A DNA stretch of 64,000 nt from Thermoproteota archaeon (GCA_027492035.1 JAOZFT010000004.1:113929-177928); one strand, 5' to 3'; positions 8,670 through 32,829 are shown, counted from the first letter of the stretch. Numbers and translations: made by a program. The notes: generated by a model from the letters alone, not told the origin.

Positions 8670-8671
8670 TT

Positions 8672-9341: not shown

Positions 9342-9355
9342 TGCAAAAAACTTCC

Positions 9356-11419: not shown

Positions 11420-11420
11420 C

Positions 11421-12728: not shown

Positions 12729-12785
12729 TTCATTTCTCCTTTCCCTTTTATAAGAAAGCTTGAAGTTAAACTTATATTTTAAAGT

Positions 12786-13640: not shown

Positions 13641-13672
13641 AAGAATCTGAAACTCAAAAAAATTAGGAGAGG

Positions 13673-15807: not shown

Positions 15808-15910
15808 ATTTAAATACTTCCCAGATTTTCCTATACAAATTGCCTTTGTTCCTTTTGTTTCTTTGATAAATAAACCTTGAGGGGATTTCTTAAGAGAGAG
15901 ATGTTAAGGA

Positions 15911-16060
15911 ATGTGCTGTGACAAATGCCCTAATTTTTTAGTTTGCGAAAAAAGCAGCAGTAGTTATCAGTCGTGCTGTAACATATGTCCCTATTTTGAT
16001 CCTACACGGAATCCACCCTGCAAGTTAGCTAAAGAAGTAAACTCTATTCTTAAGCTCTAA
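15911..16060 (+). CDS. Small cysteine-rich protein (49 aa, 9 Cys)
   Basis: MCCDKCPNFLVCEKSSSSYQSCCNICPYFDPTRNPPCKLAKEVNSILKL; upstream of the oxidoreductase operon. Confidence 0.3.
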   Translation: MCCDKCPNFLVCEKSSSSYQSCCNICPYFDPTRNPPCKLAKEVNSILKL

Positions 16061-16203
16061 CTTTTTAGAGGGAAAAATTTAAGTAATTCATTGTGTCCTT
16101 CCCTTCTTTACATTCATTACCATGTAAAGTTTTATATATAGGCTGCTATTCAGAAGTGAAGTGAGAAGCTTTCTCTTTTATTATATAGAGAGGAGAAGAA
16201 GGG

Positions 16204-16770
16204 ATGAGTTTAACTGAAGTAAGATTTCATGGGAGAGGAGGTCAAGGTGCTTGGACAGCAAGTCAGTTACTTGCTTTAGCTGCCCTGAAGGAAGGAAAAT
16301 ATGTTCAAAGTTTTCCAGAGTTCGGTCCTGAAAGAATGGGTGCACCTATTACAGCCTTTACGAGAATTTCAGATGAGAAAATGACTATTCATTGTAACGT
16401 TTACAATCCAGATGCAGTGTTGGTGCTAGATTCCACATTGATGTCCACAGTGAATGTGTTGAAAGGAGTAAAGAGAGGAGGCGTCTTAATTATTAACACA
16501 AAGGATGACCCTGAGAAAGTCAAAGCTGAACTTAAAAATGTTGAAGGTGTAATGATTGCTACCGTACCGGCTTCTGAATTAGCTCTCAACATATTAGGAA
16601 GAGATATAACCAATACTGCAATTCTTGGTTCTCTGATAAAAGTTAAACCTGTAACCTCCCTTTCTTCAGTGATTGAAGTAACAAAACAAAGATTCCCCGG
16701 AGAGTTAGGAGAAAATAACGTTGAAGTTATTAAAAAGGCTTACGAAAAAACCTTTATGGGTGAAAAGTAA
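16204..16770 (+). CDS. porG: 2-oxoacid (pyruvate-type):ferredoxin oxidoreductase, gamma subunit
   Basis: FHGRGGQGAWTASQLLA N-terminal motif; first gene of a gamma-delta-alpha-beta operon. Confidence 0.85.
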   Translation: MSLTEVRFHGRGGQGAWTASQLLALAALKEGKYVQSFPEFGPERMGAPITAFTRISDEKMTIHCNVYNPDAVLVLDSTLMSTVNVLKGVKRGGVLIINTKDDPEKVKAELKNVEGVMIATVPASELALNILGRDITNTAILGSLIKVKPVTSLSSVIEVTKQRFPGELGENNVEVIKKAYEKTFMGEK

Positions 16771-17037
16771 ATGAAGAAAGGATGGAGAGAAATACCAATA
16801 GCAGGGATGCCTTGGGTGCCAGCTACAGAATATAAAACAGGTTCTTGGAGGTCCTTTAAACCTGTAATAGATCACGGAAAATGTGTGAAGTGCTTAATTT
16901 GCTGGGTCTATTGCCCAGAGGGATCTGTAAAATGGGATGGGAATAAGGTTTCAATAGACTATGAGTATTGTAAAGGATGTGGAATATGTGCAGAAGAGTG
17001 CCCAGTTAAAGCTATTGAAATGTTAAAGGAGGAGTGA
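16771..17037 (+). CDS. porD: 2-oxoacid:ferredoxin oxidoreductase, delta subunit (2x[4Fe-4S] ferredoxin)
   Basis: Two CxxCxxCxxxCP clusters (CVKCLICWVYCP, CKGCGICAEECP). Confidence 0.85.
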   Translation: MKKGWREIPIAGMPWVPATEYKTGSWRSFKPVIDHGKCVKCLICWVYCPEGSVKWDGNKVSIDYEYCKGCGICAEECPVKAIEMLKEE

Positions 17038-17041
17038 GGGA

Positions 17042-18265
17042 ATGATTTCGCAACAAGTTTTAGGTATGAATGGTGATGAAGCAGTAGCCTATGCTGTTAA
17101 ACAATGTAATGTAGATGTGGTTGCAGCTTATCCAATAACGCCTCAAACAATAATTGTTGAAAAGTTTTCTGAATACGTAGCCAACAGAGAAGTTCATACA
17201 GAGTTTGTACCTGTTGAAAGCGAGCACAGTGCATTGTCAGCTTGTGTAGGCGCCTCTGCAACGGGTGCAAGGGTTTTCACTTCAACAGCTGCAAACGGCT
17301 TAGCCTTAATGCATGAAATAGTATACATAGCTGCAAGTTTAAGGCTTCCAATTGTCATGGCCGTAGTGAATAGAGCTTTAAGCGGGCCAATAAATATCCA
17401 CTGCGACCACAGCGACAGCATGGCTGAAAGAGATTCATCTTGGATACAGATTTACACAGAAGATGCACAAGAGGCTTATGATTCAGTAATCCAAGCATTT
17501 AAAATAGCTGAAAACCATGAAGTGCTTCTTCCAGTTATGGTTACCTTGGACGGCTTCTTTATAAGCCACACTCTTCAAAACGTGTCAGTTCTTCCTGATA
17601 AAGAGGTCTTAAGTTTCATAGGCGAGAGAAGGGTAGTACCTGAGATTGATGTCGGAGGAAAGAAATTCAAACTAAAACTTGACCCAGTGCAACCTCTAAC
17701 CTTCGGCCCCCTTGACCTATATGACTATTACTTTGAACATAAAAGACAGCAGGTTGAAGCTATGAAGAAAGCACCTAAAGTAATCGAAAAGGTGAGTAGG
17801 GAATATGCATCCTTAAGTGGCAGAAGTTATGGAAACGGGTTAGTTGAGCCTTATAAATTAGAAGATGCAGAGGTAGCAGTAGTTTGTTTAGGTTCAACAA
17901 GTGGCACAGCCAAATATGTAGTTGATGATTTAAGAAAGAGGGGGTTAAATGTAGGATGTTTGAGGGTAAGAACCTTCAGACCTTTCCCAGCTGCAGATAT
18001 AAAAAGGAATTTAACAGGCAAAGAAGTTGTAGGGGTGCTTGACAGGAGCATATCTTTTGGCGGGTTGGGAGGACCTGTATTCACTGAAATAGAAGCTTTA
18101 TTCTCTGACGAAACAGAAAAACCGAAAATTATAAACTATGTTTATGGTTTAGGGGGCCGTGACATGTCGCCACAACTGATAGAAAAAGTTTTTATGGAGC
18201 TGAATGAGTTGAAGGGTAAACCCTTACCTAAGGATACTTTAAGGTTTTCTGGGTTGAGGGAATGA
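17042..18265 (+). CDS. porA: 2-oxoacid:ferredoxin oxidoreductase, alpha subunit
   Basis: 407 aa, position and conserved N-terminal region of the PFOR alpha subunit. Confidence 0.85.
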   Translation: MISQQVLGMNGDEAVAYAVKQCNVDVVAAYPITPQTIIVEKFSEYVANREVHTEFVPVESEHSALSACVGASATGARVFTSTAANGLALMHEIVYIAASLRLPIVMAVVNRALSGPINIHCDHSDSMAERDSSWIQIYTEDAQEAYDSVIQAFKIAENHEVLLPVMVTLDGFFISHTLQNVSVLPDKEVLSFIGERRVVPEIDVGGKKFKLKLDPVQPLTFGPLDLYDYYFEHKRQQVEAMKKAPKVIEKVSREYASLSGRSYGNGLVEPYKLEDAEVAVVCLGSTSGTAKYVVDDLRKRGLNVGCLRVRTFRPFPAADIKRNLTGKEVVGVLDRSISFGGLGGPVFTEIEALFSDETEKPKIINYVYGLGGRDMSPQLIEKVFMELNELKGKPLPKDTLRFSGLRE

Positions 18266-18268
18266 AAA

Positions 18269-19216
18269 ATGAACCTAAAAAAAGTTGCACTTAGAGAAAG
18301 CTGGATTTCACCTGGGCATAGATTATGTGCAGGTTGTATGGCACCAGTTATAATTAGGCAGGCACTTTATGCACTTGACAAAAAACCTATCGTTACTAAC
18401 GCAACAGGTTGTTTAGAAGTTGCAACCACTATTTTCCCTTACACAGCTTGGAGAGTACCTTGGATCCATAATGCATTTGAAAATGCAGCTGCAACAGCAA
18501 GTGGAATAGAAGCAGCCCTTACAGCTTTCAAAAGGAAAGGAGAGTTAAAAGAGGATATACCTGTGATAGCCATAGGCGGCGACGGTGGAACTTACGATAT
18601 AGGGCTTCAAGCATTGAGCGGTGCAATAGAGAGAGGCCATGATTTTCTTTATTTACTATATGACAACGAAGCCTACATGAACACAGGCATTCAAAGGTCA
18701 GGAGGAACCCCCTTTACTGCTTGGACCACTACAACTCCAGTAGGCACTAAAATAAAGGGGAAAGTTCAATGGAAGAAACCAATAGCAAAAATAGTGGCTG
18801 CACATAGACAAATAAAGTATGTAGCTACTGCTTCACCTGCTTATTGGCTTGATTTAATGCAAAAAGTTAAGAAGGGAGTAGATGTGAAAGGCCCTGCTTT
18901 CATCCATGCAATTTCCACATGTCCACGTGGATGGAGGACGGACACAAAGTATAGTGTCAAAATTGCCAGATTAGCAGTACAAACCTGCTACTTCCCATTG
19001 TGGGAATACGAAAATGGGAAATATAAACTATCCACACCAAGTAAAGCAATAGCTTCTAACCCAGAAAAGAAACTTAAAGTTGAAGAATTTTTGAAAATGC
19101 AGGGGCGGTTTAGACACTTGTTCAAGCCAAGAAAGGACGTTGAAACCCTGAACTATATTCAGGAGGAGATAGATAAAGAATGGGAGAAACTGCTTAGGTT
19201 AACAGGTGAAGCATAG
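18269..19216 (+). CDS. porB: 2-oxoacid:ferredoxin oxidoreductase, beta subunit (TPP-binding)
   Basis: GHRLCAGCMAP and GGDGGTYDIG thiamine-diphosphate motifs. Confidence 0.85.
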   Translation: MNLKKVALRESWISPGHRLCAGCMAPVIIRQALYALDKKPIVTNATGCLEVATTIFPYTAWRVPWIHNAFENAAATASGIEAALTAFKRKGELKEDIPVIAIGGDGGTYDIGLQALSGAIERGHDFLYLLYDNEAYMNTGIQRSGGTPFTAWTTTTPVGTKIKGKVQWKKPIAKIVAAHRQIKYVATASPAYWLDLMQKVKKGVDVKGPAFIHAISTCPRGWRTDTKYSVKIARLAVQTCYFPLWEYENGKYKLSTPSKAIASNPEKKLKVEEFLKMQGRFRHLFKPRKDVETLNYIQEEIDKEWEKLLRLTGEA

Positions 19217-19265
19217 TCAGTAAAGGAGGGAAGAAAAAAATGAAAAAGCAGCACAAGGTGAACCG

Positions 19266-20336
19266 ATGCAAAACAACCAAAGACAAGTAAACGAAGAAGT
19301 TTTTCTTTCCACTTCCAGATCCCTCCCTTTCCTTTTATTAGGGTTTGTTATTTTAGGAATTTACGTTTACTTCTTTGTGGATTTTAAGAAATTAATTGAA
19401 GTGATTACTCGAATCAGTAAAGTTTATCTCTTATTAGCTTTTTTAGCTGGAACACTCGGTCTTATTTGCTACGCTACAGCGTGGCACTATTTAACTAAGG
19501 CAGTTGGCCTCAAAATAAATTGGAAATTCACCTACCCTTTAACTCTATCAAGTGTTTTTTTTAACGTAATGATTCCTTCAGCTGCATTAAGCGGCGAGGT
19601 TTATAGAACTTATGTGATTTCAAAAAGCCCTTTACCCTTAGAGGAGGGAATTGCTTCAATTGCTCTACATCGTGTAATCGCCATCTTACCTTTTATAGCT
19701 GGTTTAACAATCGGAACATTTGTAAGTTGGTTTTTCTCCCCTGTTTCAACCCAAATGTTTTTACTCTTAATCTTCTTAACAATTTTTTCAGCTGCAGTCT
19801 TCACCTTGTTTCTTTTATTCATGTTTAAGGCAGAAAAAGCATTAAAAATAATAAAATTTGTTGAAAAAATAGTAAAAGTAAAAAGAGTCAGAGACAAACT
19901 TGAAAAAATAGAGGAAGACTTCCTTGAAAAAATTGAAAAATTCAAAAACAGCCTAAAGAAAGCTGGAAAGGAAAAGAGAGAATTACTTCTTTCCATAACA
20001 TATGCCTTCCTTTACTGGTTCCTAGACATAAATGTAATCACTATTCTTTTCTATGGCTTCAATGTAAACGTTCCATTCTTTGCTGTACTTTTCGTTTACA
20101 CAGTAACCATACTCCTTCAGAGTGCACCCTTAATGGTTCCTGGAATGATTGGTTTTGCAGACCTTATAAGAACAGAATTTTTCAACCTTTTAGGGATACC
20201 TGGGGTGACAAGAGAAGTAGCTCTTTCAGTAAGTTTGCTTACAGACGCTATAGTTGTTTTTTACTACTCTTTAATAGGTTTTTTCGCTTTACTTATTCTT
20301 AATTTTCAAGCAAAAAACATAAACCTGGAAAGCTAA
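19266..20336 (+). CDS. Membrane protein, flippase-like / UPF0104-like
   Basis: Multiple TM segments with a central charged coiled segment (KIIKFVEKIVKVKRVRDKLEKIEEDF). Confidence 0.4.
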   Translation: MQNNQRQVNEEVFLSTSRSLPFLLLGFVILGIYVYFFVDFKKLIEVITRISKVYLLLAFLAGTLGLICYATAWHYLTKAVGLKINWKFTYPLTLSSVFFNVMIPSAALSGEVYRTYVISKSPLPLEEGIASIALHRVIAILPFIAGLTIGTFVSWFFSPVSTQMFLLLIFLTIFSAAVFTLFLLFMFKAEKALKIIKFVEKIVKVKRVRDKLEKIEEDFLEKIEKFKNSLKKAGKEKRELLLSITYAFLYWFLDINVITILFYGFNVNVPFFAVLFVYTVTILLQSAPLMVPGMIGFADLIRTEFFNLLGIPGVTREVALSVSLLTDAIVVFYYSLIGFFALLILNFQAKNINLES

Positions 20337-20373
20337 CTTAAAGGAGCCTAAGAAATTTAAGAGGAAATGAAAA

Positions 20374-20952
20374 TTGTTTAGAAAAGTTTTTATTACAGGT
20401 ACTCCGCGAACAGGAAAAACCACTTTAGTTTCCGAAATTATAAAGTGGGCAAATGAAAAAGGGGTAACCGTCGGAGGAATAATAACACCAGAAATAAAAA
20501 AAGGAAATACTCGAATCGGTTTTAAAGTTATTGATGTACTAACTAAAAAAGAAGGAATATTCGCCTATACCAGAATAAAGAAAGGGCTGAAGTTCGGCAA
20601 ATATAAAGTTGACATTGAGACCTTTGAGGAAATAAGTCTACCAGCAATTCAAGAATCACTTAAAAAAGCTGAAATTATTGTTATAGATGAGATAGGCAAA
20701 ATGGAGCTGTTAAGCGAAAAATTCCACAATATGTTAAGTAAGTTATTGACTGAACGAATGAACATAGCAGGAGAGAGAATATTAATAGCTACTGTTCATA
20801 GAACCCTTAAAAATGAATTTAGTGGGTTAGGAGACATGATCTGGTTAACTAAAGAAAACAGAAAAACAGTGTACCTTAAAATCTTAGATATTTTAAAGAA
20901 AATAACCAAGAAAAAAGGTGGAGACCCTTTACAAAGCTTAAACAGTAAGTGA
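20374..20952 (+). CDS. Nucleoside-triphosphatase, THEP1/MJ1559 family
   Basis: Walker A ITGTPRTGKTT at the N-terminus, Walker B IVIDEIGKME, about 190 aa. Confidence 0.7.
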   Translation: MFRKVFITGTPRTGKTTLVSEIIKWANEKGVTVGGIITPEIKKGNTRIGFKVIDVLTKKEGIFAYTRIKKGLKFGKYKVDIETFEEISLPAIQESLKKAEIIVIDEIGKMELLSEKFHNMLSKLLTERMNIAGERILIATVHRTLKNEFSGLGDMIWLTKENRKTVYLKILDILKKITKKKGGDPLQSLNSK

Positions 20953-20958
20953 GGGGGA

Positions 20959-21561
20959 ATGAACGGGAAACAATTGAAATTAGAATTTTTCGAAAGGATA
21001 TCCTCGGAATTAACTGGAATGGAAAAAGAACGTGAAAAAATTTTGCAGAAAATAAGACAGTGGCTAATTGAAACACGGAAAGTTTTCAATTTAATAAATG
21101 AAGAAAAAACTGAAGAAGCTAATTTAATTTTGCACAAAATATATGAGGAAGTTCGAAAATTTAAAGAAGAAGTTAAGAATTTTTCAGAATATAAAATTTA
21201 TTTTCATCCATTGTACAGGGAACTTGCCGAAGCCTTCTGTTTTTTGGGGATAATTAAGTCTGGAGAAGTTATCAATCCTTATTTACTTGATTTTCCCATA
21301 ATTTCTTTCTTACATGGTTTAACTGAGTCTATAGGTGAATTAAAAAGATTTACATTAAATCAAGTCATAAAAGGGGAAATTAACAAGGCTAAAAAAACCT
21401 TTAATTACATGGAGTCTATTTTTAATGCAATTTCTTTATTAACTGAGTTTCCAGATTCGTTAACCCTGAACCTAAGAAGGAAAATAGATGTAGCCAGGAG
21501 AAACGTTGAAGAAACTAGAAACATTATTGCGTATACAACTCTGCACCAAATGAGGGAATAA
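20959..21561 (+). CDS. Helical protein, possibly translin family
   Basis: 200-aa all-helical ORF; region SEYKIYFHPLYRELAEAFCFLGII resembles the translin core. Weak. Confidence 0.35.
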   Translation: MNGKQLKLEFFERISSELTGMEKEREKILQKIRQWLIETRKVFNLINEEKTEEANLILHKIYEEVRKFKEEVKNFSEYKIYFHPLYRELAEAFCFLGIIKSGEVINPYLLDFPIISFLHGLTESIGELKRFTLNQVIKGEINKAKKTFNYMESIFNAISLLTEFPDSLTLNLRRKIDVARRNVEETRNIIAYTTLHQMRE

Positions 21562-21562
21562 A

Positions 21563-22270
21563 ATGAGAAATGAACAGTTGAATTCTCTTTCAAAAATTCT
21601 CCTCTTCTACCTTTCAAAAATAAAAGGGGAATCATTTACATCCTTAAAACTTGAACCCTTCTTTGCCTTAACGAAAAAAAAGAAGGAAGAAATTAGAACC
21701 ACCCTTAACTTACTAAAAATATTGGGGTATATAGTTGAGAATTCAGAAGAAGGCCCGCAGCTTAGGGTGTCATTAACAGAAAAAGGCTTCAGGTTAGCTT
21801 CAACATTAGATAAAAGGGATATCCTACACTTTATTCAACCCTACATTAAAGAGAGAATAGAAATAAAAGGTAAAGTTTTCACAGGGAAAGGGGAAGGAAG
21901 ATACTACATGAGATTGCCACAATATGTTCAGCAATTCAGAGAAAAATTAGGATTCACTCCTTACCCAGGCACGCTAAACATAAAGATTTCATCGATTAAT
22001 TTCTTACATTCAGTGATCCTAGATATTTTACCAGGTATTGTGATTGAAGGATTTGAAGTAGATGGAAAAGTTTATGGCTCCGTTAAATGCTTCCCAGCAG
22101 AAATGGATAAAGAGGTGCTTGGTGCAGTGATAAAGATTGAGAGAACAGATTATTCCTCAGAAGTAATAGAGATAATATCTCCTCACTATTTAAGGAAGAA
22201 ATTAAACCTTGTTGACGGTTCAGTTTTGGAAGTAAGGGTTAAAACCAAACCGAGAAGCCGTAATATTTAA
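21563..22270 (+). CDS. ribK: CTP-dependent riboflavin kinase with N-terminal winged-helix domain (RbkR-like)
   Basis: C-terminal domain matches archaeal riboflavin kinase (GKGEGRYYMRLPQY, YPGTLNIKI, SSEVIEIISPHYLRKKLNLVDG); about 100 extra N-terminal residues look like a DNA-binding domain. Confidence 0.75.
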   Translation: MRNEQLNSLSKILLFYLSKIKGESFTSLKLEPFFALTKKKKEEIRTTLNLLKILGYIVENSEEGPQLRVSLTEKGFRLASTLDKRDILHFIQPYIKERIEIKGKVFTGKGEGRYYMRLPQYVQQFREKLGFTPYPGTLNIKISSINFLHSVILDILPGIVIEGFEVDGKVYGSVKCFPAEMDKEVLGAVIKIERTDYSSEVIEIISPHYLRKKLNLVDGSVLEVRVKTKPRSRNI

Positions 22271-22284
22271 ATTTACATACAATT

Positions 22285-22743
22285 TTAAGGTTTGCAAAAA
22301 ATCTGTTTAATTCTCTCCACTATTTTCTTTGTTCTACAAAGAGGAAAATCTTCAAAAGATCTGTTTAATCTTTTAACTTCTACCTTTAAACCCCTTGCCT
22401 CTAAAGCTGCCTTCAACTCATTTTGGTTGTAGGGTTGATCAGGACCAAGTATTAATATGTCAGGCTTAATTTCTTCTATTATTTTCAGTTTATCCTCACC
22501 CTTTTTACCTAATAAAACTTTTTCCACCCCCTTAATTTGTTTGATCATAAACCTCCTTTGGTCCTCAGGGATAATTGGATCCCTCCCCCTAAGGGTTCTT
22601 ACAGTTTCATCCCTTGAAACAACAACCCAAACATCACCGAATCTTTTAGCATAACTTATCAAGGCTACATGGCCTGGGTGGAGGATCTCAAATGTTCCGG
22701 CCACCACCACCTTTCTCCTCTCCTTATTACTCATATAAAACAC
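22285..22743 (-). CDS. ribL: FAD synthase (FMN adenylyltransferase), archaeal RibL type
   Basis: Cytidylyltransferase motif VVAGTFEILHPGH plus VVVSRDETV, RGRDPIIPEDQR, ILGPDQ. Confidence 0.85.
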   Translation of the reverse strand: MFYMSNKERRKVVVAGTFEILHPGHVALISYAKRFGDVWVVVSRDETVRTLRGRDPIIPEDQRRFMIKQIKGVEKVLLGKKGEDKLKIIEEIKPDILILGPDQPYNQNELKAALEARGLKVEVKRLNRSFEDFPLCRTKKIVERIKQIFCKP

Positions 22744-22800
22744 CTTTAAAAAGGGGAAAATGAATTTTATAGCTTTAAATAAATTTAGAGGGGGAGAGGA

Positions 22801-23574
22801 ATGCTGATTTTAATTGGGTTAGGATTACACAACGAAGAGGGAATGACATTGAGAGGAATCCACCTAGCTAGGGAAGCTGATGAAGTGTACCTCGAACAAT
22901 ATACTAACAAGATGTTTATAAATAAAAGTAATTTAGACTCACTACTCCATAAGGAAGTGAAAATTGTAGAAAGAAGAAACCTGGAAGAGGAGTCTGAATG
23001 GATAATAGAAAAAAGTAGGAACAAAAAAATTGCTTTACTTATTCCAGGCAATGTTTTTATTGCCACAACCCACATAGCTTTGCAAACAGAAGCTTTACAA
23101 AAAGGGATAGAAGTGAAAGTTGAACCTGGTACATCTATTTATTGTGCAGCAATAGCTTTAACTGGTTTACAGATATATAAATTCGGCCCTGCAGCCACTA
23201 TTCCACTAGAAGGAAAATCTGAAAGAATTTACACTGTGTTAGAACAAAACAAAGAAAGGGGGCTCCACACTTTCTTCTTCCTTGACATAAAATATGAAAA
23301 AAACAGGTTCTTGACAATACCTGAAGCCCTTAAAAAGCTTTTAGACTTAGAAATGGAAAAAAGAAGGAAAGTTGTGTTAAAGAATGATTTAGTCATAGGT
23401 CTTGCCCACGTAGGAGGGGAGGATTCATTAATAGAAGTGGGAAGTATTGAAGAAGTTATGAAGAAAAATTTCGGGCCCCCTCCCCAGTGTCTAATTTACC
23501 CAGGAAAACTTCACTTTATGGAGAAAGAGTTTTTAGAACTTATCAGAGAGAGGAAAGTGAAAAAAGTCCAATAA
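22801..23574 (+). CDS. dph5: Diphthine synthase
   Basis: N-terminal MLILIGLGL...GIHLAREADEVYLEQYT of the tetrapyrrole-methylase-fold Dph5; 257 aa; EF-2 (its substrate) is in this window. Confidence 0.85.
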   Translation: MLILIGLGLHNEEGMTLRGIHLAREADEVYLEQYTNKMFINKSNLDSLLHKEVKIVERRNLEEESEWIIEKSRNKKIALLIPGNVFIATTHIALQTEALQKGIEVKVEPGTSIYCAAIALTGLQIYKFGPAATIPLEGKSERIYTVLEQNKERGLHTFFFLDIKYEKNRFLTIPEALKKLLDLEMEKRRKVVLKNDLVIGLAHVGGEDSLIEVGSIEEVMKKNFGPPPQCLIYPGKLHFMEKEFLELIRERKVKKVQ

Positions 23575-24177
23575 AATAGATGGCTCGATAGTATACAATT
23601 AAATAATTAAGTGAATCCCATTGCTACTTGCTTGCAAGCCCTTTAGGTTAGAATAAAAATACTTCTTGGATTTAAGCAGAATTATTGTGGAGGAGTTTGA
23701 CAAAACATTTCTATTTAAGTAATCCTATTAATGTTATGTGTTTGCATTTACTCAAGCTTAAATAAGGTTTTAAGTGTCCCTTTAACCTTTAACTATGTAA
23801 AGTAAAGGTTTCTGGAAACGACTCTAGTGAGCATTGTGGAATCATCTTTGATGAGAGAAGTAAGTTTAGGGACAAAAGTAAACAACAGCACTCTATCCTC
23901 CAGTTAGGGATGTGGAGGATGACACCCGCGATGATGCCCCGGCTACAGTTATGAAAAATTATAAAAGTAGCGGAGAGAGAACCAGAACGGCTTCGTTTCT
24001 TAACCTACATAGTTGATAAAGCAGTACTTGGAGAAATGGTTAGACTGGGCCAGGTACTCCTACCATGATCCCTTTTTCTATGCAACCTTTTTCACGACTT
24101 CACTAACATATGGTTTAGATATAACCCTTAGTTAGTTCCGGGATTGAACTAAAGAGTTTTGGCTCTCTTTAACAGAA

Positions 24178-24662
24178 ATGGTCCTTAAAGGTCTGAGTTT
24201 AAAGATACAGGAAAAAGAATTTTATGCCCTTATGGGACCCAACGGTGCTGGAAAAACAACTTTAGTCGCTATCATAGCCTCTGTGATTTTACCTACCGAG
24301 GGTAAGGTAGAAATTTATGGGAAGGAACCTCAGTTTATAAGGAAATTTATTGGTTATGTACCTCAAGAAAATTTTTCTTCCCCAACGCTTAGTGGTAGAG
24401 AGAATTTGATGTACTTTGCTAGACTTGTGGGTATTCAAAGGATAAGGCTAAGGAACTTGTGAACGAAATACTGGAAAAAAAATTGGTTTGTCTAAGGATG
24501 CTGATAAGAGAGTTTCTACATATTCGGAGGTATGAGAAAAAGGTTGGAAGTTGCAACAGCCTTCTTTCCTAATATCAAATTTTGATTTTAAGTGAACCAA
24601 CTACAGGCCTGGACCCCTCGGCAAGAAGAGAATTTTTGGGCTTAATTCAAGATATTCCCTAA
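24178..24662 (+). pseudogene. ABC transporter ATP-binding protein, truncated and frameshifted remnant
   Basis: Walker A GPNGAGKTT in frame 1, signature-like GGMRKRLEVA in a second frame, Walker B-like ILILSEPTTGLDP in a third frame, then an early stop; N-terminal 25 or so residues missing. Confidence 0.75.
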
Positions 24663-25144
24663 ATAAATTTGTAGTCTGCTCAGGGATGAATGCAAAATAT
24701 TGATTCCTAGTTTTACTTAAACTCCTTCTAACAACGAGTATCGTCGGTACCTTCTCAAACTCGATGCTGTCAGCCTTTATCTCAGCTTTAAGAAAATCTC
24801 TAAGCTTCAACACATCAGTTCCATCATAGCTTCCTAAGCTCTGAAGCCTTAAACCGAAAAAGCCATCAACGCTATAGTAATCCTAGCTCTGGGTATAGCC
24901 ATCCTAATAATCTTATCCAACTCAGCTTTACCTGGAACCCTTTCGTCAGCTATAGTTTGGTGTCTCGTATTACTTTAGCAATATTAACCTTAAGCTTGAC
25001 ATCCAATCCGTTAAAAGAAAGCCAGGAACATAGGGCTTTCTTAAACCTAGCTACATATGAACCAGCCTTACCTTCCGATTCAAGCTCTCTAACGAAATCC
25101 ATAAACCTATCTCTAAAGAACTTAGTCCCAGCTACCTTAAGCAA
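24663..25144 (-). pseudogene. Tyrosine recombinase/integrase, frameshifted and C-terminally truncated remnant
   Basis: N-terminal SAM-like region (MLKVAGTKFFRDRFMDFVRELESEGKAGSYVARFKKALCSWL) and box I region (ITIALMAFS / GLRLQSLGSYDGTDV) appear in three successive frames; catalytic HxxR/Y region absent. Lower boundary approximate because the far end overlaps the ABC fragment antisense. Confidence 0.55.
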
Positions 25145-25356
25145 AGCCTCAGGATCAGTTTTATTCGATTCACAGTAAAGCCCTAGGTCCTAAGGCAAAC
25201 TGTAGCTGTAATGATGGATTTAGCTGCTAGGTTACCAAACCCACGCTTAACATCCTCATCCTCAAGGAGGTAAGAATACTTATTCGGCAACTCTTGTTGA
25301 GTTGAGTTAAAGGTTGAAACCGTGTTTAAAATTTAAGGGTTCACTTGAAAAGTTAG

Positions 25357-25481
25357 TGGGCCCGGCGGGATTTGAACCCGCGACCCTCGGGTTGCTCCTC
25401 CAAAGGGGAGTACTTCTTTGGGATTAAGAGCCCGGTGCTTTAGGCAAATGAGAGGTTTCTACCTTGCTGAGCTACGGGCCC
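25357..25481 (-). tRNA. tRNA-Lys(CUU) with two predicted introns (about 19 nt in the D-stem, about 32 nt in the anticodon loop)
   Basis: 7-bp acceptor GGGCCCG/CGGGCCC, T-arm GCGGG-UUCAAAU-CCCGC. Removing AACCUCUCAUUUGCCUAAA restores D-arm GCUC-AGCAAGGUA-GAGC; anticodon stem CCGGG with loop CUCUUAA after removing a hairpin-forming intron. Isotype from hand folding. Confidence 0.6.
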
Positions 25482-25534
25482 AGAGATTAAATGTTAAAGG
25501 GGTGATTATTAAACCTTTTTAAGGGATTTTTTAT

Positions 25535-25975
25535 TTAAATGTTGCATTCTTTTTGAGTGGAAACTTCAACTGTAACTATAACTTTTCCTCCTTTCTTGAT
25601 TTCGTTAATTAGTGCCCTGTTGAAGTCTATAGCTGCTTTATCAGCTAGAATTGCCAGTGTTCTTGAACAAATGAATTTGCTTTTCCTTACAACCATATCT
25701 TCGTGATGGTTTAGAGGGAGATCGGGGTGTCCATGAGCTTTAATTATTTCTGTTTTGTTTCCAGCTTTCACTTTTATCTCTATTAACGCATTCTCCTTTC
25801 TAATTAAGTCCTTAACTTTTTCATTGAAATGTTTTAAGGCTTTGTTACAGTTAACAGCTATTATGCAGTTCCCTTTTTCTGTTAGGTAAGGTGCGCAAGT
25901 TAGTTCAAATGTTGTTTTATGAGTAGCTGTGACTAGGGGGTGTCCCTTACAAATTATTGTAACTTTTTCTTTCAT
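25535..25975 (-). CDS. DUF371-like protein
   Basis: MKEKVTIICKGHPLVTATHKTTFELT... resembles the archaeal DUF371 family; start taken at the internal Met rather than the upstream extension in the ORF track. Confidence 0.4.
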   Translation of the reverse strand: MKEKVTIICKGHPLVTATHKTTFELTCAPYLTEKGNCIIAVNCNKALKHFNEKVKDLIRKENALIEIKVKAGNKTEIIKAHGHPDLPLNHHEDMVVRKSKFICSRTLAILADKAAIDFNRALINEIKKGGKVIVTVEVSTQKECNI

Positions 25976-26202
25976 CTCTTTACTCCATTCCCTTCTTTTT
26001 GAAGAAAGTTTTGTATGCCGATTTTGAAAGGAAGCAATTGTTTCATGAGTCGACAGCTTATTCCTAAAAAATTTTGTATTTCCTATTTTTATCTCTTTCT
26101 TTCCCCTTTTCTGTTTTGGATTTCCTAAACAATTTTTTAACAAAGGGTCACCTATCTAAAATATAGATGAAGGAGATTGTAAGGAAGAGTTAGGGGAAGG
26201 AT

Positions 26203-26880
26203 GTGGCTGATTTAGTAGTTGAGAAAGAGAAACTTATCAAGTATTACGTTAGGACAGGAATCTTAAAATCAAGTAAAGTAATTGAAGCTTTCAGGAAAAT
26301 ACCTAGGGAAGAATTTGTTCTTCCAGAGTATTTTGATGCAGCTTACCAGGATACCCCCTTACCTATAGGATTCGGGCAAACAATCAGTGCGCCCCATATG
26401 GTTTGCATGTACGCTGAAATACTGTCATTAAAGCCGGGATTGAAGGTTTTGGAGGTGGGGGCTGGATCTGGATATAACGCAGCCATTTTTGCAGAGCTAG
26501 TGGCAAGTTTAGATGTTCCTAAGTCGGAATGGGGGCATGTGTATACATTAGAAATAATTCCGGAACTTTGTGAATTTGCAAGAAGTAACTTAGCTAAAAC
26601 AGGTTTCATTGACAGGGTGACTGTGATCTGCCAAGATGGAAGTTTAGGTTTGGCGGAGTACGCACCCTTTGATCGAATATCAGTGGCTGCAGCAGCCCCT
26701 GACATTCCTACACCTTTAATTGACCAGTTAAGGGAGGGAGGGTTAATATTGATACCTGTCGGGTCATCCTTCTATCAAAAACTTGTTTTGGGGCATAAGG
26801 TTGGGGGGAAATTAATTAGAGAAGAAGTAGCGTCTGTTGCTTTTGTAGCTTTAAGGGGAAGGTATGGTTGGAAAGAGTGA
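26203..26880 (+). CDS. pcm: Protein-L-isoaspartate O-methyltransferase
   Basis: QTISAPHMV and SAM-binding VLEVGAGSGYNAA motifs; 225 aa. Confidence 0.9.
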   Translation: MADLVVEKEKLIKYYVRTGILKSSKVIEAFRKIPREEFVLPEYFDAAYQDTPLPIGFGQTISAPHMVCMYAEILSLKPGLKVLEVGAGSGYNAAIFAELVASLDVPKSEWGHVYTLEIIPELCEFARSNLAKTGFIDRVTVICQDGSLGLAEYAPFDRISVAAAAPDIPTPLIDQLREGGLILIPVGSSFYQKLVLGHKVGGKLIREEVASVAFVALRGRYGWKE

Positions 26881-27105
26881 ATTCACTTCCAGCTTTTTAT
26901 AGAGGTTCCCTGCCCCAGTCAGAATTGACCTTCTTCCGTTGGGAGTGAAGGTTTCAGTGAGTGAAACCTTTTCCCTGAAACTCATGTAGAGGAGGTTACA
27001 AAAACATGATTTTTCAGCAGGTATAACTTAAGCCTGTCCTTCAGCCCTACACAAGTTCATAGGCAAGCGGAGAAAATGTATAAAAGGAGCTTCTTCATGA
27101 CAGAG

Positions 27106-28134
27106 CTAAAACCATTTCTCTAAACCGGTAACTGCGAAGTACTTATTGTAAGATTCAACTAGCCTGTTTAAGGCTTTCTGGACACGTGAAAGTGAAAAGT
27201 CGTGTTTTCTACAGAGGAACTCAATTATTTCTTCAGTTTGAGGCTTCTCCCAACTTATTTTGTAGTTGTCTGTGACTAATGGTTTTTGGAAAACTTCCAT
27301 TATTTCCTGTAAGTTCTCAGGAGGCTTCTCCCCCTTCTCCTCATAAATTTTGTTTAAGTCCCCACCGTATTTTTTAAGTAATTTAACTGCTGTCTTTGCA
27401 CCACAACCTTTAAGCCCCTTATTAAAGTCTGTCCCGACCAATATCCCACATAGGATTAGTTCATTTAATGTTAAACTGTTTTTATCAATTAATTCATCTA
27501 GAAAAATTATTTCAGGCTGAATTTGAATATATTGTTTTTTCCCCGGCAGTTTACGTCTGCCACTTATCGTTAAATTTCTTACAAGTCGGGGTGCACCGAA
27601 GAGTAAGGCGTCATAATCCTGTGAAGCTACAGCCCAGCAATCGCCTTTCTTTGCCATGTATGCTGCTTGTGCTTCGCCTTCTTGTGGTGATTTTATATAA
27701 GGGATGCCCATGTACCCCAAAAGGGTACATGCACCTTCTACTAACTCGTCTGTGAGTCTTGATGATGCTTGAGCATATTTACGGGCCAGTTCTAGGTCGC
27801 CTATTTCTAACGCCCTTTTCCACAATGTTTCAGCTGATTCTCGACTTTCTTTCCTTCTTTCAAGCTCTTTCTTCTTAAGTTTAGGTGGAACGCCGTCGAA
27901 GACATAGATTGGTTTTATTCCGTTCTCATACAGGTTGATTGTCCTATAGAATAAACCAGAAAGGTGGCTAGTTACTTTTCCTGTGTGATCCTTTAAGGGG
28001 GTTCCGTCAGGTTGCCTTATAATGGCTAGAAATTGGTAAAGAGTATTTGCTGAATCTATACATATTTTTTTGCCGTTTAAATCCCCAAAAGATATAGGTT
28101 TAGGATGTGTTATTCCCCTTAATTTAACCCCCAT
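27106..28134 (-). CDS. fen: Flap endonuclease 1
   Basis: N-terminal MGVKLRG...ICIDSANTLYQFL and IYVFDG motifs of FEN-1/XPG; start at the MGV Met. Confidence 0.9.
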   Translation of the reverse strand: MGVKLRGITHPKPISFGDLNGKKICIDSANTLYQFLAIIRQPDGTPLKDHTGKVTSHLSGLFYRTINLYENGIKPIYVFDGVPPKLKKKELERRKESRESAETLWKRALEIGDLELARKYAQASSRLTDELVEGACTLLGYMGIPYIKSPQEGEAQAAYMAKKGDCWAVASQDYDALLFGAPRLVRNLTISGRRKLPGKKQYIQIQPEIIFLDELIDKNSLTLNELILCGILVGTDFNKGLKGCGAKTAVKLLKKYGGDLNKIYEEKGEKPPENLQEIMEVFQKPLVTDNYKISWEKPQTEEIIEFLCRKHDFSLSRVQKALNRLVESYNKYFAVTGLEKWF

Positions 28135-28171
28135 TTCTTTAGTTTTCACCCTCCTAATAAAAATAAGCTTA

Positions 28172-28393
28172 CTAAATCAGTTCAACTTTACGTTGTTTTT
28201 TATTTATCTGAACAAAAGTTATTTTTCGTTTCGTTTCTAGTTCTAAAAGAGTTTTTAAGACAGTGTGCTCCGAAACGTCAGGGTAATATTGCCTTACATA
28301 GTTTAGAAGTTTATCTAAAAGAACTACCCTGTTTTTTTCTAAAAACTCAAGTATAACATTTCTTAGAGGAATCGGTCTCCAAATCATTTCCAA
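28172..28393 (-). CDS. Small protein, unknown function (73 aa)
   Basis: ORF between cdc48 and fen on the same strand; no recognized motif. Confidence 0.3.
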   Translation of the reverse strand: MEMIWRPIPLRNVILEFLEKNRVVLLDKLLNYVRQYYPDVSEHTVLKTLLELETKRKITFVQINKKQRKVELI

Positions 28394-28397
28394 ATCA

Positions 28398-30599
28398 TCA
28401 CATAGTCTCTAAGGAAAACTTTTTTAATGAAGGCTTCCTAAAGTTTTTTTCAAAACTTTTGTACCAACTCGTCAATTCAGGGGATATGGAAGGAGAAACA
28501 AGAAGTAGTGCCTCCTCAAAATCTTGCATCCTAACCTTTACAGGTTGCATTTTGTTTTTCCTTAAAGCTATAAAGCCTGCCTCACGGCAAATAGATTTTA
28601 TATCGGCACCTGAGTAACCTTGTGTTTTTTCAGCAAGTTTTTCTAAGTCAACATCATTTTTAAGTTTCATCTTTCTAGTGTAAATTTTGAATATTTCCAC
28701 TCTTGAGTAGAAGTCAGGCTCGCCTACATATATTAATTTCTCCAGTCTACCTGGCCTAAATAAAGCAGGATCCACTAAATCTGGCCTGTTAGTGGCTGCT
28801 ATGACTGTTACGTTTTTTAGTTCCTTAACTCCATCTATCTCAGTTAAAAGTTGACTTACTGCTCTTTCCATAGCATTATTTAATGAACCACTTCTCTTAG
28901 GGGCTATAGCATCTACCTCATCGAAGAAAACAATTGAAGGGGCAGCTAACTTTGCTTTACGGAAAATTTCACGTACTGCCCTTTCAGTTTCACCCATCCA
29001 CATGCTTATTATTTCTGGGCCGTTTATAGCTATGAAATTTGCCTCTGTTTCATTAGCTACAGCCTTAGCAAGTAAAGTTTTACCGCAACCAGGAGGACCA
29101 TAAAGTAAAACACCACTAGGAGGCTCAATACCCATTTCTTCAATGACTTCTCGGTGTTTTAATGGCCATTCTACAGCTTCTCTTAAGCTTGACTTAGCTT
29201 CATGTAATCCGCCGATGTCGCCCCATTTCACATCCGCTTTTTCGAGGATTATTTCCCTTAATGCACTTGGTTGAACTCTTTTTAAAGCTTTTTGGAAGTC
29301 GCAAGCCTTTATTTTTATCTCATCAAAGATTTCAGGTGAGAATTTCCCTTTTTCCGAATCTATTGTTGGTATATATCGTCTTAAGGCTATTATCGCAGCT
29401 TCTTTCGCAAGAGCAGATAAGTCAGCCCCTACAAATCCATGGGTTACTTCAGCTATTTCTTCAAGGTTCACATCTTCGGCTAAGGGCATGTTTCGAGTAT
29501 GTATTTTCAATATTTCCAGTCTTTCCTTTTTATCGGGAACTTTTATCTCTATTTCCCTATCTAATCTCCCAGGTCTTCTTAAGGCAGGTTCCAGTGCATT
29601 GGGTCGGTTAGTAGCTGCTATAACTATTACCTTCCCTCTTGTTGAAAGCCCGTCCATTAACGCTAAAAGTTGGGCCACTACCCTTCTCTCAACTTCACCT
29701 GTAACCTCTTCCCTTTTAGGGGCTATAGCATCTATTTCATCAATGAAAATGATTGAAGGAGACTTATTTTTTGCTTCATTAAATATTTTTCTAAGCCTGC
29801 GTTCTGATTCACCATAGAATTTGTTCATTATTTCTGGGCCGTTTATAGCTATGAAATTTGCCTCTGTTTCATTAGCTACAGCCTTAGCAAGTAAAGTTTT
29901 ACCGCAACCAGGAGGACCATAAAGTAAAACACCACTAGGAGGCTCAATACCAAGTTTTTGGAAAAGCTCCGGGTATTTTAAGGGAAGTTCAACCATTTCC
30001 CGGATTCTTTGGATTTCTTCTTTTAAACCACCAATGTCTTCGTAGGTCACATAGGGAATATTGCCGGTGGTTGAAACTGATTTTTCCCGAAGCACGATTG
30101 CAGTATTTGCTTCAACTACTACAATGCCTTTCGGCTTAGTATTTACTACCTTTAGGTTTAGGCTGTGATGATAAAAGTTTACAGGTTTTAGGTCTCCTAC
30201 AACTAAGGGAACTCCTATTAACTTCTTTTTAATATATTTAGTTATGTTTCCTGGTAATTTAGATTGGACAGGTGCTAAAATTATTTTTTCAGCTTTGCCA
30301 GGGTAAGCTTTCTCGACATATACCCTCTCTCCCAAACTGACATCTGCATTCCTCCTTGTTATGCCATCCATTCTAATTAAGCCTAGGTTTTCATCCTCCG
30401 GGTAGGCTCTCCAAACAATTGCTGCAGTGGTTTTTTTGCCTGTAATTTTCACTATGTCTCCAATGTTTAGGTTAAGTAAACGTCTGGTTGCAGAGTCTAA
30501 CCTAACAGCTTCCTTACCTACGTCTTCTATCTTGGCATTAGCTACTTTCACAACAACTTTCACTGTTTTCAAAGGAATCCCTTTCAAAAAAATTAACAA
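28398..30599 (-). CDS. cdc48: Cdc48/VCP-like AAA+ ATPase (two AAA domains)
   Basis: N-domain plus two Walker A (GPPGCGKT) and Walker B ([16 protein letters not shown]) modules; 733 aa. Confidence 0.95.
29008..29132. repeat. 125-bp perfect direct repeat, copy 1 (cdc48 D2 Walker A region)
   Basis: Identical at every base to 29827-29951; both encode [38 protein letters not shown]. Confidence 0.9.
29827..29951. repeat. 125-bp perfect direct repeat, copy 2 (cdc48 D1 Walker A region)
   Basis: Identical to 29008-29132; flanking bases differ on both sides. Confidence 0.9.
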
Positions 30600-30764
30600 G
30601 TTTGGGCAATATTTTCTTTAACTTTAAAATGAACAAGTCTTTTAAATGTTTTTCTGAAAAGGAGATATGAAAAGAAAGGAATTTTTACCTAGAATGAACT
30701 TTAAAGAGGTGAATAAACTGGGTTATTATTTAATCTTTCCACTTTTTTAAGGTGTTTGTTCAAT

Positions 30765-31031
30765 TTAAAGGGCTCTTGATACATTCTCTATATAAACTGA
30801 ACTCACGTGGTCTATGGCAACAAGCCTTTCTTCGATTTTGTTCATTAGTTCATGTTTTTCTTCAACCAAAAGAATTAATTCAATTGTGTTGAGGCCAAAA
30901 GCTAATGGTTTAAACTGGATCTTGTTTATTACTCCTAGTTTAGAGGCCACTCCTTTAACTTCCTCCTTTAATTTACCCATGTCAACTTCTGCAGAATCTG
31001 GTGTAACCCTTACTTTCACCAAAACAGACAT
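30765..31031 (-). CDS. ef1b: Elongation factor 1-beta
   Basis: 88 aa; MSVLVKVRV...VEEKHEL...VSSVYIEN pattern of archaeal aEF-1beta. Confidence 0.8.
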   Translation of the reverse strand: MSVLVKVRVTPDSAEVDMGKLKEEVKGVASKLGVINKIQFKPLAFGLNTIELILLVEEKHELMNKIEERLVAIDHVSSVYIENVSRAL

Positions 31032-31040
31032 TTTTTCACC

Positions 31041-31217
31041 TCAAGGACCTTCAAATCCACAGTTCGGACATTTATATTCATTGCCAAATTTTCTGCATAC
31101 CTCACAACGGAAAATTTCAACTTTTTCACAATTGGGACATTTAAAGGAAACAGCACCTGTCCCTGCCACAATTTTTTTCCCGCAACTGGTGCATACATGG
31201 AATAATTTGCTTTCCAT
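31041..31217 (-). CDS. Zn-ribbon protein (58 aa), the small protein usually found upstream of aEF-1beta
   Basis: MESKLFHVCTSCGKKIVAGTGAVSFKCPNCEKVEIFRCEVCRKFGNEYKCPNCGFEGP with four CxxC pairs. ORF track lists a different frame (31016-31198), which I consider wrong. Confidence 0.7.
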   Translation of the reverse strand: MESKLFHVCTSCGKKIVAGTGAVSFKCPNCEKVEIFRCEVCRKFGNEYKCPNCGFEGP

Positions 31218-31222
31218 TTTTT

Positions 31223-32350
31223 TTAACCCCTGAGCAGTTTCCTCACTTCCTCTGAGACAGTAATTAGGTAAGTTTTACCAAGTCTCTCCTTCTTTAAAAT
31301 GTTTCTCATAACAAGTTCAGAAATTACCCTACTTGTTGTGGGCTTTGTTAACCCTACAATTGAGGCCAGGTCATCCTGCGTTATTTTTCCCTTTCTCATA
31401 ACTGCTTTAAAAATTTCTCTTTCATCGTATGTTAAAAATGTATTTAAAAAGTTTTTGATCGGCTGAATTTTCTTTTGTTTCAGAAAGGAAGTAAGAAATA
31501 CAAAGGCTATAAGTGCACCTATGGAAAGGCCTAAAAACAGTCTGTAATCTATAAATTCAGAAATTACTGTTAATAAAGGTTCGAAGTTGGTTTTGTTTTC
31601 CGGAGAGACATAGGAACTGTTCATTGAAACAAGATACGTTTTTTTACCCAATTCTTCAACTTCCTTAAGTACTTTATTGGATAAGTTTGTGTCAAGAATG
31701 TATATTTCCTTTACTTCAGTGAGATAGTTAAGAATTACTCTTACAGTGCTCTCAGGTAGTTCATCTTTTTTTATGTAAAGGACAGGAGTCCCTTTCTCCA
31801 TTGAAATAGATAATGCAGCAAAAGCAGCAGTTGGGTTATAACCATCAACCAAAACTACAGCTTTGGTTTTTTCTTTACTCCACAGCCTAGCTGCAACTTC
31901 AGCTGAAGTTTCAATCCTTGTTGTGCCCCAAATTCTTTCCACAGAAAACCCCATCTTTTTTAGCTCTAACTCGGTAGATTTAGGTATAGCTAACTCCTCT
32001 CCAAGAATTAAAATGTTCTTTCTTCCTATTAAACATAAACCTGAAAGTAAAGCTTTAGTTATTTCATCTATCCCCCCTTTTTTAGCCACCATCAAAACAG
32101 GAATATTTACTTCATTAGCATAAGATTCTGCAATAACCCAGTCAGCAGGAATGTCACCCCTGACAAGGATTGCTGAGTAACTACTTTCTTGGGCAAACAT
32201 ATTTAGGGTTGAAAAAAGGATAGGAATAAGAAGTAATGTAAGAAGGAAAGTTGTTTTTGGTATTTCCTTTTGGAACTTGTTAAGCACCCTAAGAACCTCC
32301 TCTCTTCTTAAAACTTTTTGGAAGACATAGGTGAAAAGGGAGAAATACAT
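31223..32350 (-). CDS. Membrane-anchored protein with extracellular repeat domain and C-terminal winged-helix domain
   Basis: N-terminal hydrophobic segment, soluble region, second TM (LGLSIGALIAFVFLTSFL), then HTH-like tail ITQDDLASIVGLTKPTTSRVISEL. Confidence 0.4.
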   Translation of the reverse strand: MYFSLFTYVFQKVLRREEVLRVLNKFQKEIPKTTFLLTLLLIPILFSTLNMFAQESSYSAILVRGDIPADWVIAESYANEVNIPVLMVAKKGGIDEITKALLSGLCLIGRKNILILGEELAIPKSTELELKKMGFSVERIWGTTRIETSAEVAARLWSKEKTKAVVLVDGYNPTAAFAALSISMEKGTPVLYIKKDELPESTVRVILNYLTEVKEIYILDTNLSNKVLKEVEELGKKTYLVSMNSSYVSPENKTNFEPLLTVISEFIDYRLFLGLSIGALIAFVFLTSFLKQKKIQPIKNFLNTFLTYDEREIFKAVMRKGKITQDDLASIVGLTKPTTSRVISELVMRNILKKERLGKTYLITVSEEVRKLLRG

Positions 32351-32439
32351 AGAATAAAAGATTTTAAAAAGACAGTTTTAAAAGTATACCTTTTAAAGCC
32401 TTTCTTTTTCGTTTCAGAAATTTCTGGTTAGAAAATAAT

Positions 32440-32526
32440 GGGCCCGTGGCCTAACATGGATAAGGCGTCGGCCTGCGGTTTTTAGAAGAAAGCCGGAGGA
32501 TGCGGGTTCAAATCCCGCCGGGCCCG
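32440..32526 (+). tRNA. tRNA-Arg(GCG) with 12-nt anticodon-loop intron
   Basis: Acceptor GGGCCCG/CGGGCCC, D-arm GCCU-AACAUGGAUA-AGGC, anticodon stem UCGGC/GCCGG with loop CUGCGG + intron UUUUUAGAAGAA, T-arm GCGGG-UUCAAAU-CCCGC. Confidence 0.75.
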
Positions 32527-32829
32527 TTTTTTACATACCTTGAACTAAGTTAAAGATGGATCTTGAAAAGTAAAGCGTGAAAAAAGGGAAAAATGAACCT
32601 TGCAAGTTACAGCTTTTAAAAAGATGAAAGTGCCAATTCTTTGAGGAGAATATTTCTAGAATTTTATTTTTAATAACCTTTTAGAGCCTAAAATAGAAGA
32701 GAAATATGCGGTATTCGTAAAAAAGATGGTTGGTGATTTAGTCTGAAAGTACTTTTTCTAGGTAGTTATTTCCCTAAACCAGCAGGTGCAGAGGTTTACT
32801 GCTTTGAGTTAAATAGGGAATTTTTAAGC

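Follow-up and report, generated by a model that had tools for sequence, protein, structure and literature searches.

The 64,000-nucleotide (nt) stretch of Thermoproteota archaeon DNA analysed here (GCA_027492035.1, JAOZFT010000004.1:113929-177928; hereafter the window) carries, at a tRNA-Lys(CUU) gene, a 1773-nt insertion. Very probably this is what remains, after internal deletion and loss of function, of a small archaeal integrative element. The inserted DNA starts exactly after the discriminator base of the tRNA, both of its ends are element ends, and it encloses a tyrosine-integrase pseudogene and an ABC ATPase pseudogene. An initial annotation had read this place as a decayed element scar composed of an integrase remnant, an ABC ATPase remnant and a stretch without open reading frames (ORFs) beside tRNA-Lys. 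All three components are present at the positions given there, and the scar reading is borne out by the bounded insertion, its element ends and the real recombinase and ABC fragments. The features of the region are listed below, with positions counted from the first nucleotide of the window.

23584-25356: the insertion as a whole, 1773 nt, lacking in sister strains, directly after the tRNA-Lys discriminator base
25291-25356, minus strand: integrase-side element end, CTAACTTTTCAAGTGAACCCTTAAAT directly after the tRNA discriminator base, with an inverted-repeat arm at 25337-25349
24646-25290, minus strand: tyrosine-integrase pseudogene, family residues ~1-217, in segments 25290-25177, 25186-24980, 24953-24855 and 24864-24646
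24646-24652: putative internal deletion junction, a 7-nt microhomology (TTCAAGA) common to the ends of the ABC and integrase remnants, which meet tail-to-tail
24143-24652, plus strand: pseudogene of an ABC-2/DrrA-type ABC ATPase, without a start codon and truncated after LIQD, past Walker B
23620-24142: element DNA, ~520 nt, without an ORF of at least 60 amino acids (aa) and without detectable similarity
23581-23619, minus strand: distal element end (attR), with the arm GGGATTCACTTAATTATTTAATTGTATAC at 23591-23619 and the core TATCGAG plus CCA at 23581-23590, followed by host DNA
25357-25481, minus strand: tRNA-Lys(CUU) with two introns (Rfam RF00005, 43.7 bits), the integration target, whose 3′ end is the proximal junction (attL)
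25406-25725: diverged host flank linked to the insertion, together with 23550-23583
22801-23574, plus strand: dph5, left neighbour of the insertion
25535-26143, minus strand: DUF371, beyond tRNA-Lys

The boundary at 23584-25356 is not visible from the sequence alone and was found by comparison with an empty site. Sister-strain and same-population contigs were located by exact-protein look-ups. Three sister-strain assemblies (L007, L008 and L097), 98.6-99.5% identical to the window, have the empty site, in which the dph5 stop codon is followed by six bases (AATAGA) and then by the tRNA-Lys 3′ end (TGGGCCC...). In one of these, a 133-kb contig (L007, GCA_027491775.1; 98.8-99.5% identical), blastn aligned positions 1-10783 with window 12800-23583 and positions 10781-20774 with window 25357-35351, and DUF371 comes after tRNA-Lys. 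The comparison of synteny from dph5 to DUF371 that the initial annotation had called for therefore gave a close relative with dph5, tRNA-Lys and DUF371 in that order and without the 1773 nt. A precise empty site in close relatives is expected of a tRNA-integrating archaeal element. The only repeat flanking the insertion is a 3-nt TGG (23581-23583 and 25357-25359), which reads CCA on the tRNA strand. A scan of genome contigs with dph5 returned only relatives at 41-42% identity, of no use for synteny.

The occupied site was also recovered from other assemblies. Same-population contigs from two of them are 99.97-100% identical to the window and carry the same broken ORFs of 94 and 64 aa; the left host junction recurs in L001 and L002, and the right one in L006. 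The recurrence of the same broken ORFs in independent assemblies shows that the frameshifts did not arise as errors in a single assembly.

The tRNA-Lys gene itself remains intact and is unaffected by the remnant. One of its introns lies in the D-arm (~19-21 nt) and the other beside the anticodon loop (~32 nt); because of these two introns, ARAGORN did not call the gene. Bases 25357-25405 are identical in the empty-site relative L007, and differences from L007 within the gene are confined to the introns. The empty-site strain L097 has a single exon difference, in the 3′ strand of the anticodon stem (CCCAAGGG for CCCGAGGG).

The integrase frame starts at 25290, 67 nt downstream of tRNA-Lys and on the same strand, and is interrupted by three frameshifts, near 25180, 24960 and 24860. 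After frame correction, the resulting 221-aa sequence matched 58 proteins (best E = 4e-83, 65-67% identity), several of which are named site-specific integrase. These come from metagenome-assembled genomes (MAGs) of Nitrososphaerales, Bathyarchaeia, Thermoplasmata and Methanomethylicia. The remnant aligns to residues ~1-217 of family members that are ~370-440 aa long. It retains the first catalytic Arg (in GLR) and the Lys (in SLSKTR), ends at EYLE near residue 217, and so stops ahead of the YxxR, H and Y motifs (YVLR, GHK and ARY in the family alignment). It is therefore a pseudogene, with an incomplete catalytic set of Arg, Lys, (His/Tyr)xxArg, His and Tyr. The fragment had no Pfam match and matched NCBIfam XerA weakly (4e-05). 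The initial description, of a same-strand frame downstream of tRNA-Lys with at least two frameshifts and without a catalytic C-terminus, was accurate, and the homology search that it proposed found genuine relatives for the tyrosine recombinase and the ABC ATPase alike.

The ends of the element were recognised by comparison with other copies. Scanning metagenomes with the integrase alignment yielded 278 relatives and 80 loci (L012-L091). In most of these, and in L011, the integrase starts 60-70 nt past the end motif that adjoins the tRNA, on the same strand. ARAGORN called an adjacent tRNA in 56 loci (Val in 22, Ala in 13, Ile in 6, and others); the layout of these loci and of L011, a tRNA 3′ end with an adjoining same-strand integrase, is that found in the window. 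Directly 3′ of the tRNA, most of the 80 loci and L011 have the family end motif C(T/C)(T/A)AAATTTTTTAAG(T/C)GAATCCTTAAATA (also written ...(T/C)GAATCC). The integrase-side end in the window occupies the place of this motif, as does the corresponding end in L011 beside tRNA-Val. Four copies in the metagenomes are complete, with both ends: L038 (9.8 kb), L055 (8.3 kb), L087 (7.5 kb) and L079 (6.5 kb, decayed). At the far end of complete copies, GGATTCACTTAATT is followed by ~11 nt, a 16-20-nt copy of the tRNA 3′ end, and host DNA.

The family distal arm is also found at the dph5 edge of the window insertion. This arm matches that of L044 at 25 of 27 nt and contains the GGATTCACTTAATT motif, as do the distal ends of L038, L055 and L079, with a distance of 24 nt from the junction as against 25 nt. 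Within this arm, the inverted repeat at 23607-23619 pairs with the integrase-proximal end; the arm pair of the family is GGATTCACTTAA...TTAAGTGAATCC. The family distal arm and its inverted repeat at the dph5 edge indicate that an attR exists there, and place the ABC remnant and the ORF-free DNA within the element. Both are therefore element DNA, either cargo or leftover sequence, and do not derive from host genes that have decayed. It had been expected that attR would show itself by a partial direct repeat of the 3′ half of tRNA-Lys, but searching the window for one gave only other tRNA genes; attR is recognisable only by its similarity to the family distal arm. A loose minus-strand match to the motif at ~20650-20666 (offset 8335), which would have placed a second element end within an NTPase gene, was taken as chance.

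The second pseudogene was identified by Pfam ABC_tran (4e-29) and by NCBIfam TIGR01188 DrrA (1e-44, below its cut-off). Its closest homologue, P0067 in L092, is 86% identical at the amino acid level and 87.8% identical at the nucleotide level over 24177-24655. Relative to this homologue the window copy has four frameshifting indels, at ~24428, 24475, 24525 and 24576. Once the frame is corrected, Walker A (GPNGAGKT), the signature (YSGGMRKR) and Walker B (ILILSEP) are recognisable, with Ser in place of the Walker B Asp. Homologues have a DrrA1-3_C domain and a following permease gene; the window copy lacks an intact frame with these. What the initial annotation had seen, a gene without its first residues, split between frames and stopping past Walker B, is thus a copy with no start codon and four frameshifting indels that ends after LIQD. 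The closest homologue is itself split into two ORFs (L092 64-957; 169 aa and 121 aa), broken almost where the window copy is truncated.

The two pseudogenes meet in the 7 nt of TTCAAGA. Identity of the ABC sequence to L092 continues through GGGCTTAATTCAAGA and ends at 24652, and integrase homology on the other strand continues through GAATATCTTGAA (EYLE) and ends at 24646. From this arrangement of sequences, we read the junction as the probable mark of one microhomology-mediated internal deletion. A possible continuation of the integrase past the junction was also considered and rejected: the SPxxLFxPRG similarity is coincidental, as the DNA there is 88% identical to the ABC gene.

On the dph5 side of the ABC pseudogene, the absence of ORFs of at least 60 aa in all frames was confirmed for 23575-24177; this stretch of 603 nt is the second longest of its kind in the window. 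When 23584-24200 was compared by blastn and tblastx with all fetched loci and with the contexts of the ABC homologues, only the 27-nt arm matched. The insertion had no blastn match to plasmids, and a permissive Rfam search of 23300-25600 returned the tRNA and nothing else credible.

These features suggest the following history. A full element would have integrated by conservative site-specific recombination between its own attachment site and the tRNA 3′ end, which would have left 67 nt between the tRNA and the integrase gene, the arrangement seen in intact relatives. One illegitimate deletion at TTCAAGA would then have removed the integrase C-terminus, the 3′ part of the cargo ABC gene and everything between them, and seven frameshifting indels and other changes would have accumulated afterwards. 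The allele would predate the split of the sister strains, one lineage having acquired its state through homologous recombination over ~2-3 kb. It is likely that nothing in the region besides the tRNA works.

Several observations weigh against this account. The attR core is TATCGAGCCA and the tRNA-Lys 3′ end is GCCGGGCCCA, so that only CCA is repeated; attR and attL agree at best at 6 of 10 positions, with a gap, as against the 16-20-nt repeats of complete relatives. For archaeal attachment repeats, published lengths extend from 8 bp to more than 100 bp (PMC8371274, PMC6563490), and a repeat of 3 nt falls outside this range. Canonical integration does not explain such a degenerate, TCGAGCCA-type core. 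Integration at a secondary site, with a core retained from an earlier target, would fit, and so would alteration of the core after integration. In addition, no assembly other than that of the window covers the junction stretch 24638-24788, the contigs of GCA_027491625.1 ending at 24637 and 24789. That the ABC ATPase is cargo is something we infer, and close homologues of the gene are found in ordinary ABC-2 operons of the chromosome. Finally, the ~520 nt at 23620-24142 remain without assignment.

Divergence of the host flanks bears on the age of the insertion. In the tract formed by 23550-23583 and 25357-25725, the window and L007 differ at 29 of 403 nt (7.2%), in comparison with 45 differences in the 7597 nt that make up the rest of the 4-kb flanks (0.59%; Fisher p = 3e-19). 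The flanks beside the insertion are therefore ~12 times more diverged, and the tract is sharply bounded. Where it covers the tail of DUF371, 13 codons have changed, 9 of them synonymously and 4 non-synonymously. The diverged tract looks like the footprint of an import by homologous recombination. To judge from this pattern, the insertion and empty alleles probably long predate the divergence of the strains, and the state now seen in one lineage was probably acquired when ~2-3 kb were exchanged by homologous recombination. An old allele would account for the seven frameshifting indels in ~1.1 kb.

The integrase belongs to an abundant family of divergent XerA-like tyrosine integrases that is widespread in metagenomes. 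Most of the metagenome integrases align at full length in a single frame by tblastn, which in-frame stops could escape. Integrated copies keep an unbroken gene next to the tRNA, so the attachment site must be external to the gene. Family elements target the last 11-20 nt of many different tRNAs, and the tRNA-end core is flanked by inverted repeats of 12-13 nt. Besides the integrase, their genes mostly defy annotation; winged-helix and AAA ATPase proteins are also present. Annotated relatives come from MAGs of Thermoproteota/TACK (Nitrososphaerales, Bathyarchaeia, Methanomethylicia and Nezhaarchaeales) and of Thermoplasmata. No relatives were found among viral contigs (IMG/VR) scanned with the integrase alignment, or by tblastn of the intact relative P0001 against phages (INPHARED) and plasmids (PLSDB).

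Contigs of L012-L091 very often break off at the junction of tRNA and element or close to it, within 60-260 nt of the integrase on its upstream side, a pattern that mixed populations of integrated and empty sites would produce. In L044 (93-160), the distal arm runs directly into an 11-nt tRNA-end core and this into the integrase-proximal end, which is the arrangement of an attP in a free circular element. Two other loci have only 11-14 nt of the tRNA end before the element end, without a distal arm (L028 ~2045-2064 and L054 ~437-460). Terminal overlaps that would prove circular episomes were looked for in these three contigs, and none were present. L066 (30-1000) contains two family elements head-to-head on neighbouring, oppositely oriented tRNA genes.

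Broken integrases occur elsewhere in the family, in L079 (486-6960; ORFs of 196 aa and 77 aa) and in L011 (1386-2693; 291 aa and 142 aa). From reading their sequences, we take the cargo of the L079 element to be a host-like MalK-type ABC ATPase and an oxidoreductase of the Gfo/Idh/MocA type. Decay and metabolic cargo thus recur in the integrase family, as the L079 and L011 copies are broken and the former has host-like cargo.

In full-length members the conserved positions are R148, K193, R270 within the YVLR motif, H297 and Y305. Neither Pfam nor NCBIfam has an entry dedicated to the family: P0001, P0032 and P0042 had no Pfam match, P0040 reached 26.8 bits on PF00589, where the cut-off is 27.1, and full-length members matched NCBIfam XerA at E = 4e-10 to 2.5e-11 with 36-44 bits against a cut-off of 220. 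A profile match to the P. abyssi Xer structure aligned GLRPESL with GLRVSEL and RPYVLRAY with TPHQLRHS. An AlphaFold model of P0001 had a mean pLDDT of 76, and its best 36 PDB matches in Foldseek were all tyrosine recombinases, with XerA (5hxy) first at E = 4.8e-08; further matches were to an integron integrase, Brujita Int, Cre and lambda Int. The family integrase is accordingly predicted by modelling to have the two-domain tyrosine-recombinase fold, with a core-binding and a catalytic domain.

As a rival to the dead remnant, the window copy could be a non-autonomous mini-element that has kept both ends and is still moved in trans by a family integrase, its presence or absence among strains reflecting recent movement. 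Both terminal arms and their inverted repeats are retained, strains with 98.6-99.5% identity show a precise empty site, the family is abundant with most copies full-length in one frame, and contigs break frequently at the tRNA/element junction, as they would in mixed populations. We nevertheless consider this reading unlikely. The degenerate attR core has only CCA in common with attL, and the ~12-fold divergence of the flanks favours an old linked allele over a recent jump. Moreover, there is no other integrase copy within the 64-kb window and no second copy of the insertion in any fetched locus. It is possible, if somewhat doubtful, that the integrase family may be formally undescribed and that the window copy is either a helper-moved mini-element or the product of low-specificity integration with a 3-nt core.

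The remaining alternatives concern the individual parts. The junction between the ABC and integrase remnants might be an assembly artefact that conceals a larger element between them, given that contigs stop at 24637 and 24789 in GCA_027491625.1 and at 24261 and 25367 in GCA_027491475.1. These break points differ between the assemblies, whose MAGs are fragmented throughout (contigs of 2-10 kb), and the probable source contig of the window measures 666 kb. The microhomology is a clean 7 nt, with the homology of each gene ending exactly there. A misjoin is for these reasons very unlikely, and both genes would in any case still be frameshifted pseudogenes.

The integrase fragment could in principle be the N-terminal half of an SSV-type 'suicidal' integrase, as several homologues on long contigs (P0004, P0005 and P0036) are also N-terminal fragments, ending near FVPQQT. 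This reading was ruled out, with next to no probability left to it: integrated relatives keep a full-length gene in one frame that starts 60-70 nt outside the tRNA, the truncation abuts ABC DNA and not the tRNA, fragment end points vary among homologues, and neither the fragment nor four full-length members matched Pfam Phage_integr_3 (PF16795). It is just as implausible that the ABC ATPase and the ORF-free DNA are host genes decaying in place beside a foreign integrase: close ABC homologues (70-76% identity) do occur in chromosomal ABC-2 operons by housekeeping genes, but the empty site contradicts the idea, as sister strains lack the whole 1773 nt, ABC remnant included, and the distal arm of the element lies beyond that remnant on the dph5 side.

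The remnant of an integrative element at tRNA-Lys can be compared with several known systems. Remnants of bacterial tRNA-linked genomic islands have a truncated integrase beside a tRNA gene and, as a rule, part of the tRNA still recognisable as a repeat at their far end. The locus described here resembles them in the tRNA 3′ end, the same-strand integrase pseudogene, the decayed cargo and a presence that varies between close strains; it differs in having a repeat of just 3 nt and a far end that is known through the similarity of the element arm.

Archaeal mobile elements commonly integrate into tRNA genes, and in the cryptic integrated elements of Thaumarchaeota the attachment repeats are short, with a median of 17 bp and a minimum of 8 bp (Krupovic et al. 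2019, PMC6563490). Like these, the elements described here are small and bear an integrase without viral or conjugative hallmark genes, complete relatives measuring 6.5-10 kb with repeats of 16-20 nt. They differ in host, which is not a thaumarchaeon as judged by FEN1, and the window copy is only a 1.77-kb stump with a dead integrase. By their general features, the family elements fit the class of cryptic integrated elements (PMC6563490).

Archaeal recombinases of the XerA/pNOB8 type (PMC8371274) are alike in fold and motifs, in having XerA as the closest structure, and in leaving the gene whole after integration. The family here is very divergent from them and has Tyr in place of the His of the HxxR box. 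The pNOB8 elements of Sulfolobales have repeats of 40-50 bp (PMC8371274), compared with 11-20 nt at the extreme tRNA 3′ end for the present family. A family without a Pfam match, fam30-08 (PMC8371274), may be the same as that described here, which we give as a lead only. In SSV-type integrases the attachment site lies inside the gene, and integration splits the gene at the tRNA (PMC7253208, PMC8371274). These enzymes are likewise archaeal, target tRNA genes and are commonly found as chromosomal gene fragments; in the window, by contrast, no part of the gene overlaps the tRNA, and its truncation is due to a deletion distinct from integration.

The stump is an ordinary genomic fossil with limits known to the base. 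For annotation, it amounts to two pseudogenes within a 1.77-kb element remnant, with little consequence for the genome. Its exact empty site, both ends and the microhomology junction make it a well-bounded record of the decay of an archaeal element in place, and its linked, diverged flank suggests that remnants of this kind can pass from one close strain to another through homologous recombination. More generally, an abundant and poorly annotated integrase family with a regular architecture at tRNA ends could help to delimit integrated elements in archaeal MAGs. The unusual 3-nt repeat of the window copy adds slight further value.

The surrounding window is a segment of archaeal chromosome with a GC content of ~36% that also encodes PIMT, FEN1 and CDC48. 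The best matches of FEN1 are at 99% identity, then at 65% and 61%, and then at ~56% to mixed Asgard and Bathyarchaeia proteins. The first of these is probably from a sister strain, and the low identity of the others (~56-65%) suggests that the host lineage is poorly sampled. A literature search by assembly accessions found no publication.

ORFs of at least 60 aa cover 89% of the window. The longest stretch without one is 15308-16203 (896 nt), between a thermosome gene and a pyruvate:ferredoxin oxidoreductase operon, which had no Rfam match at E <= 1. A second intron-containing tRNA gene, with an encoded CCA, was found by motif search and sequence reading at 57522-57643 on the plus strand (5′ GGGGCCGTAGTCC..., 3′ ...GGTTCAAATCCCGGCGGCCCCACCA); missed by ARAGORN and at the Rfam gathering threshold, it is probably a tRNA-Pro(GGG).

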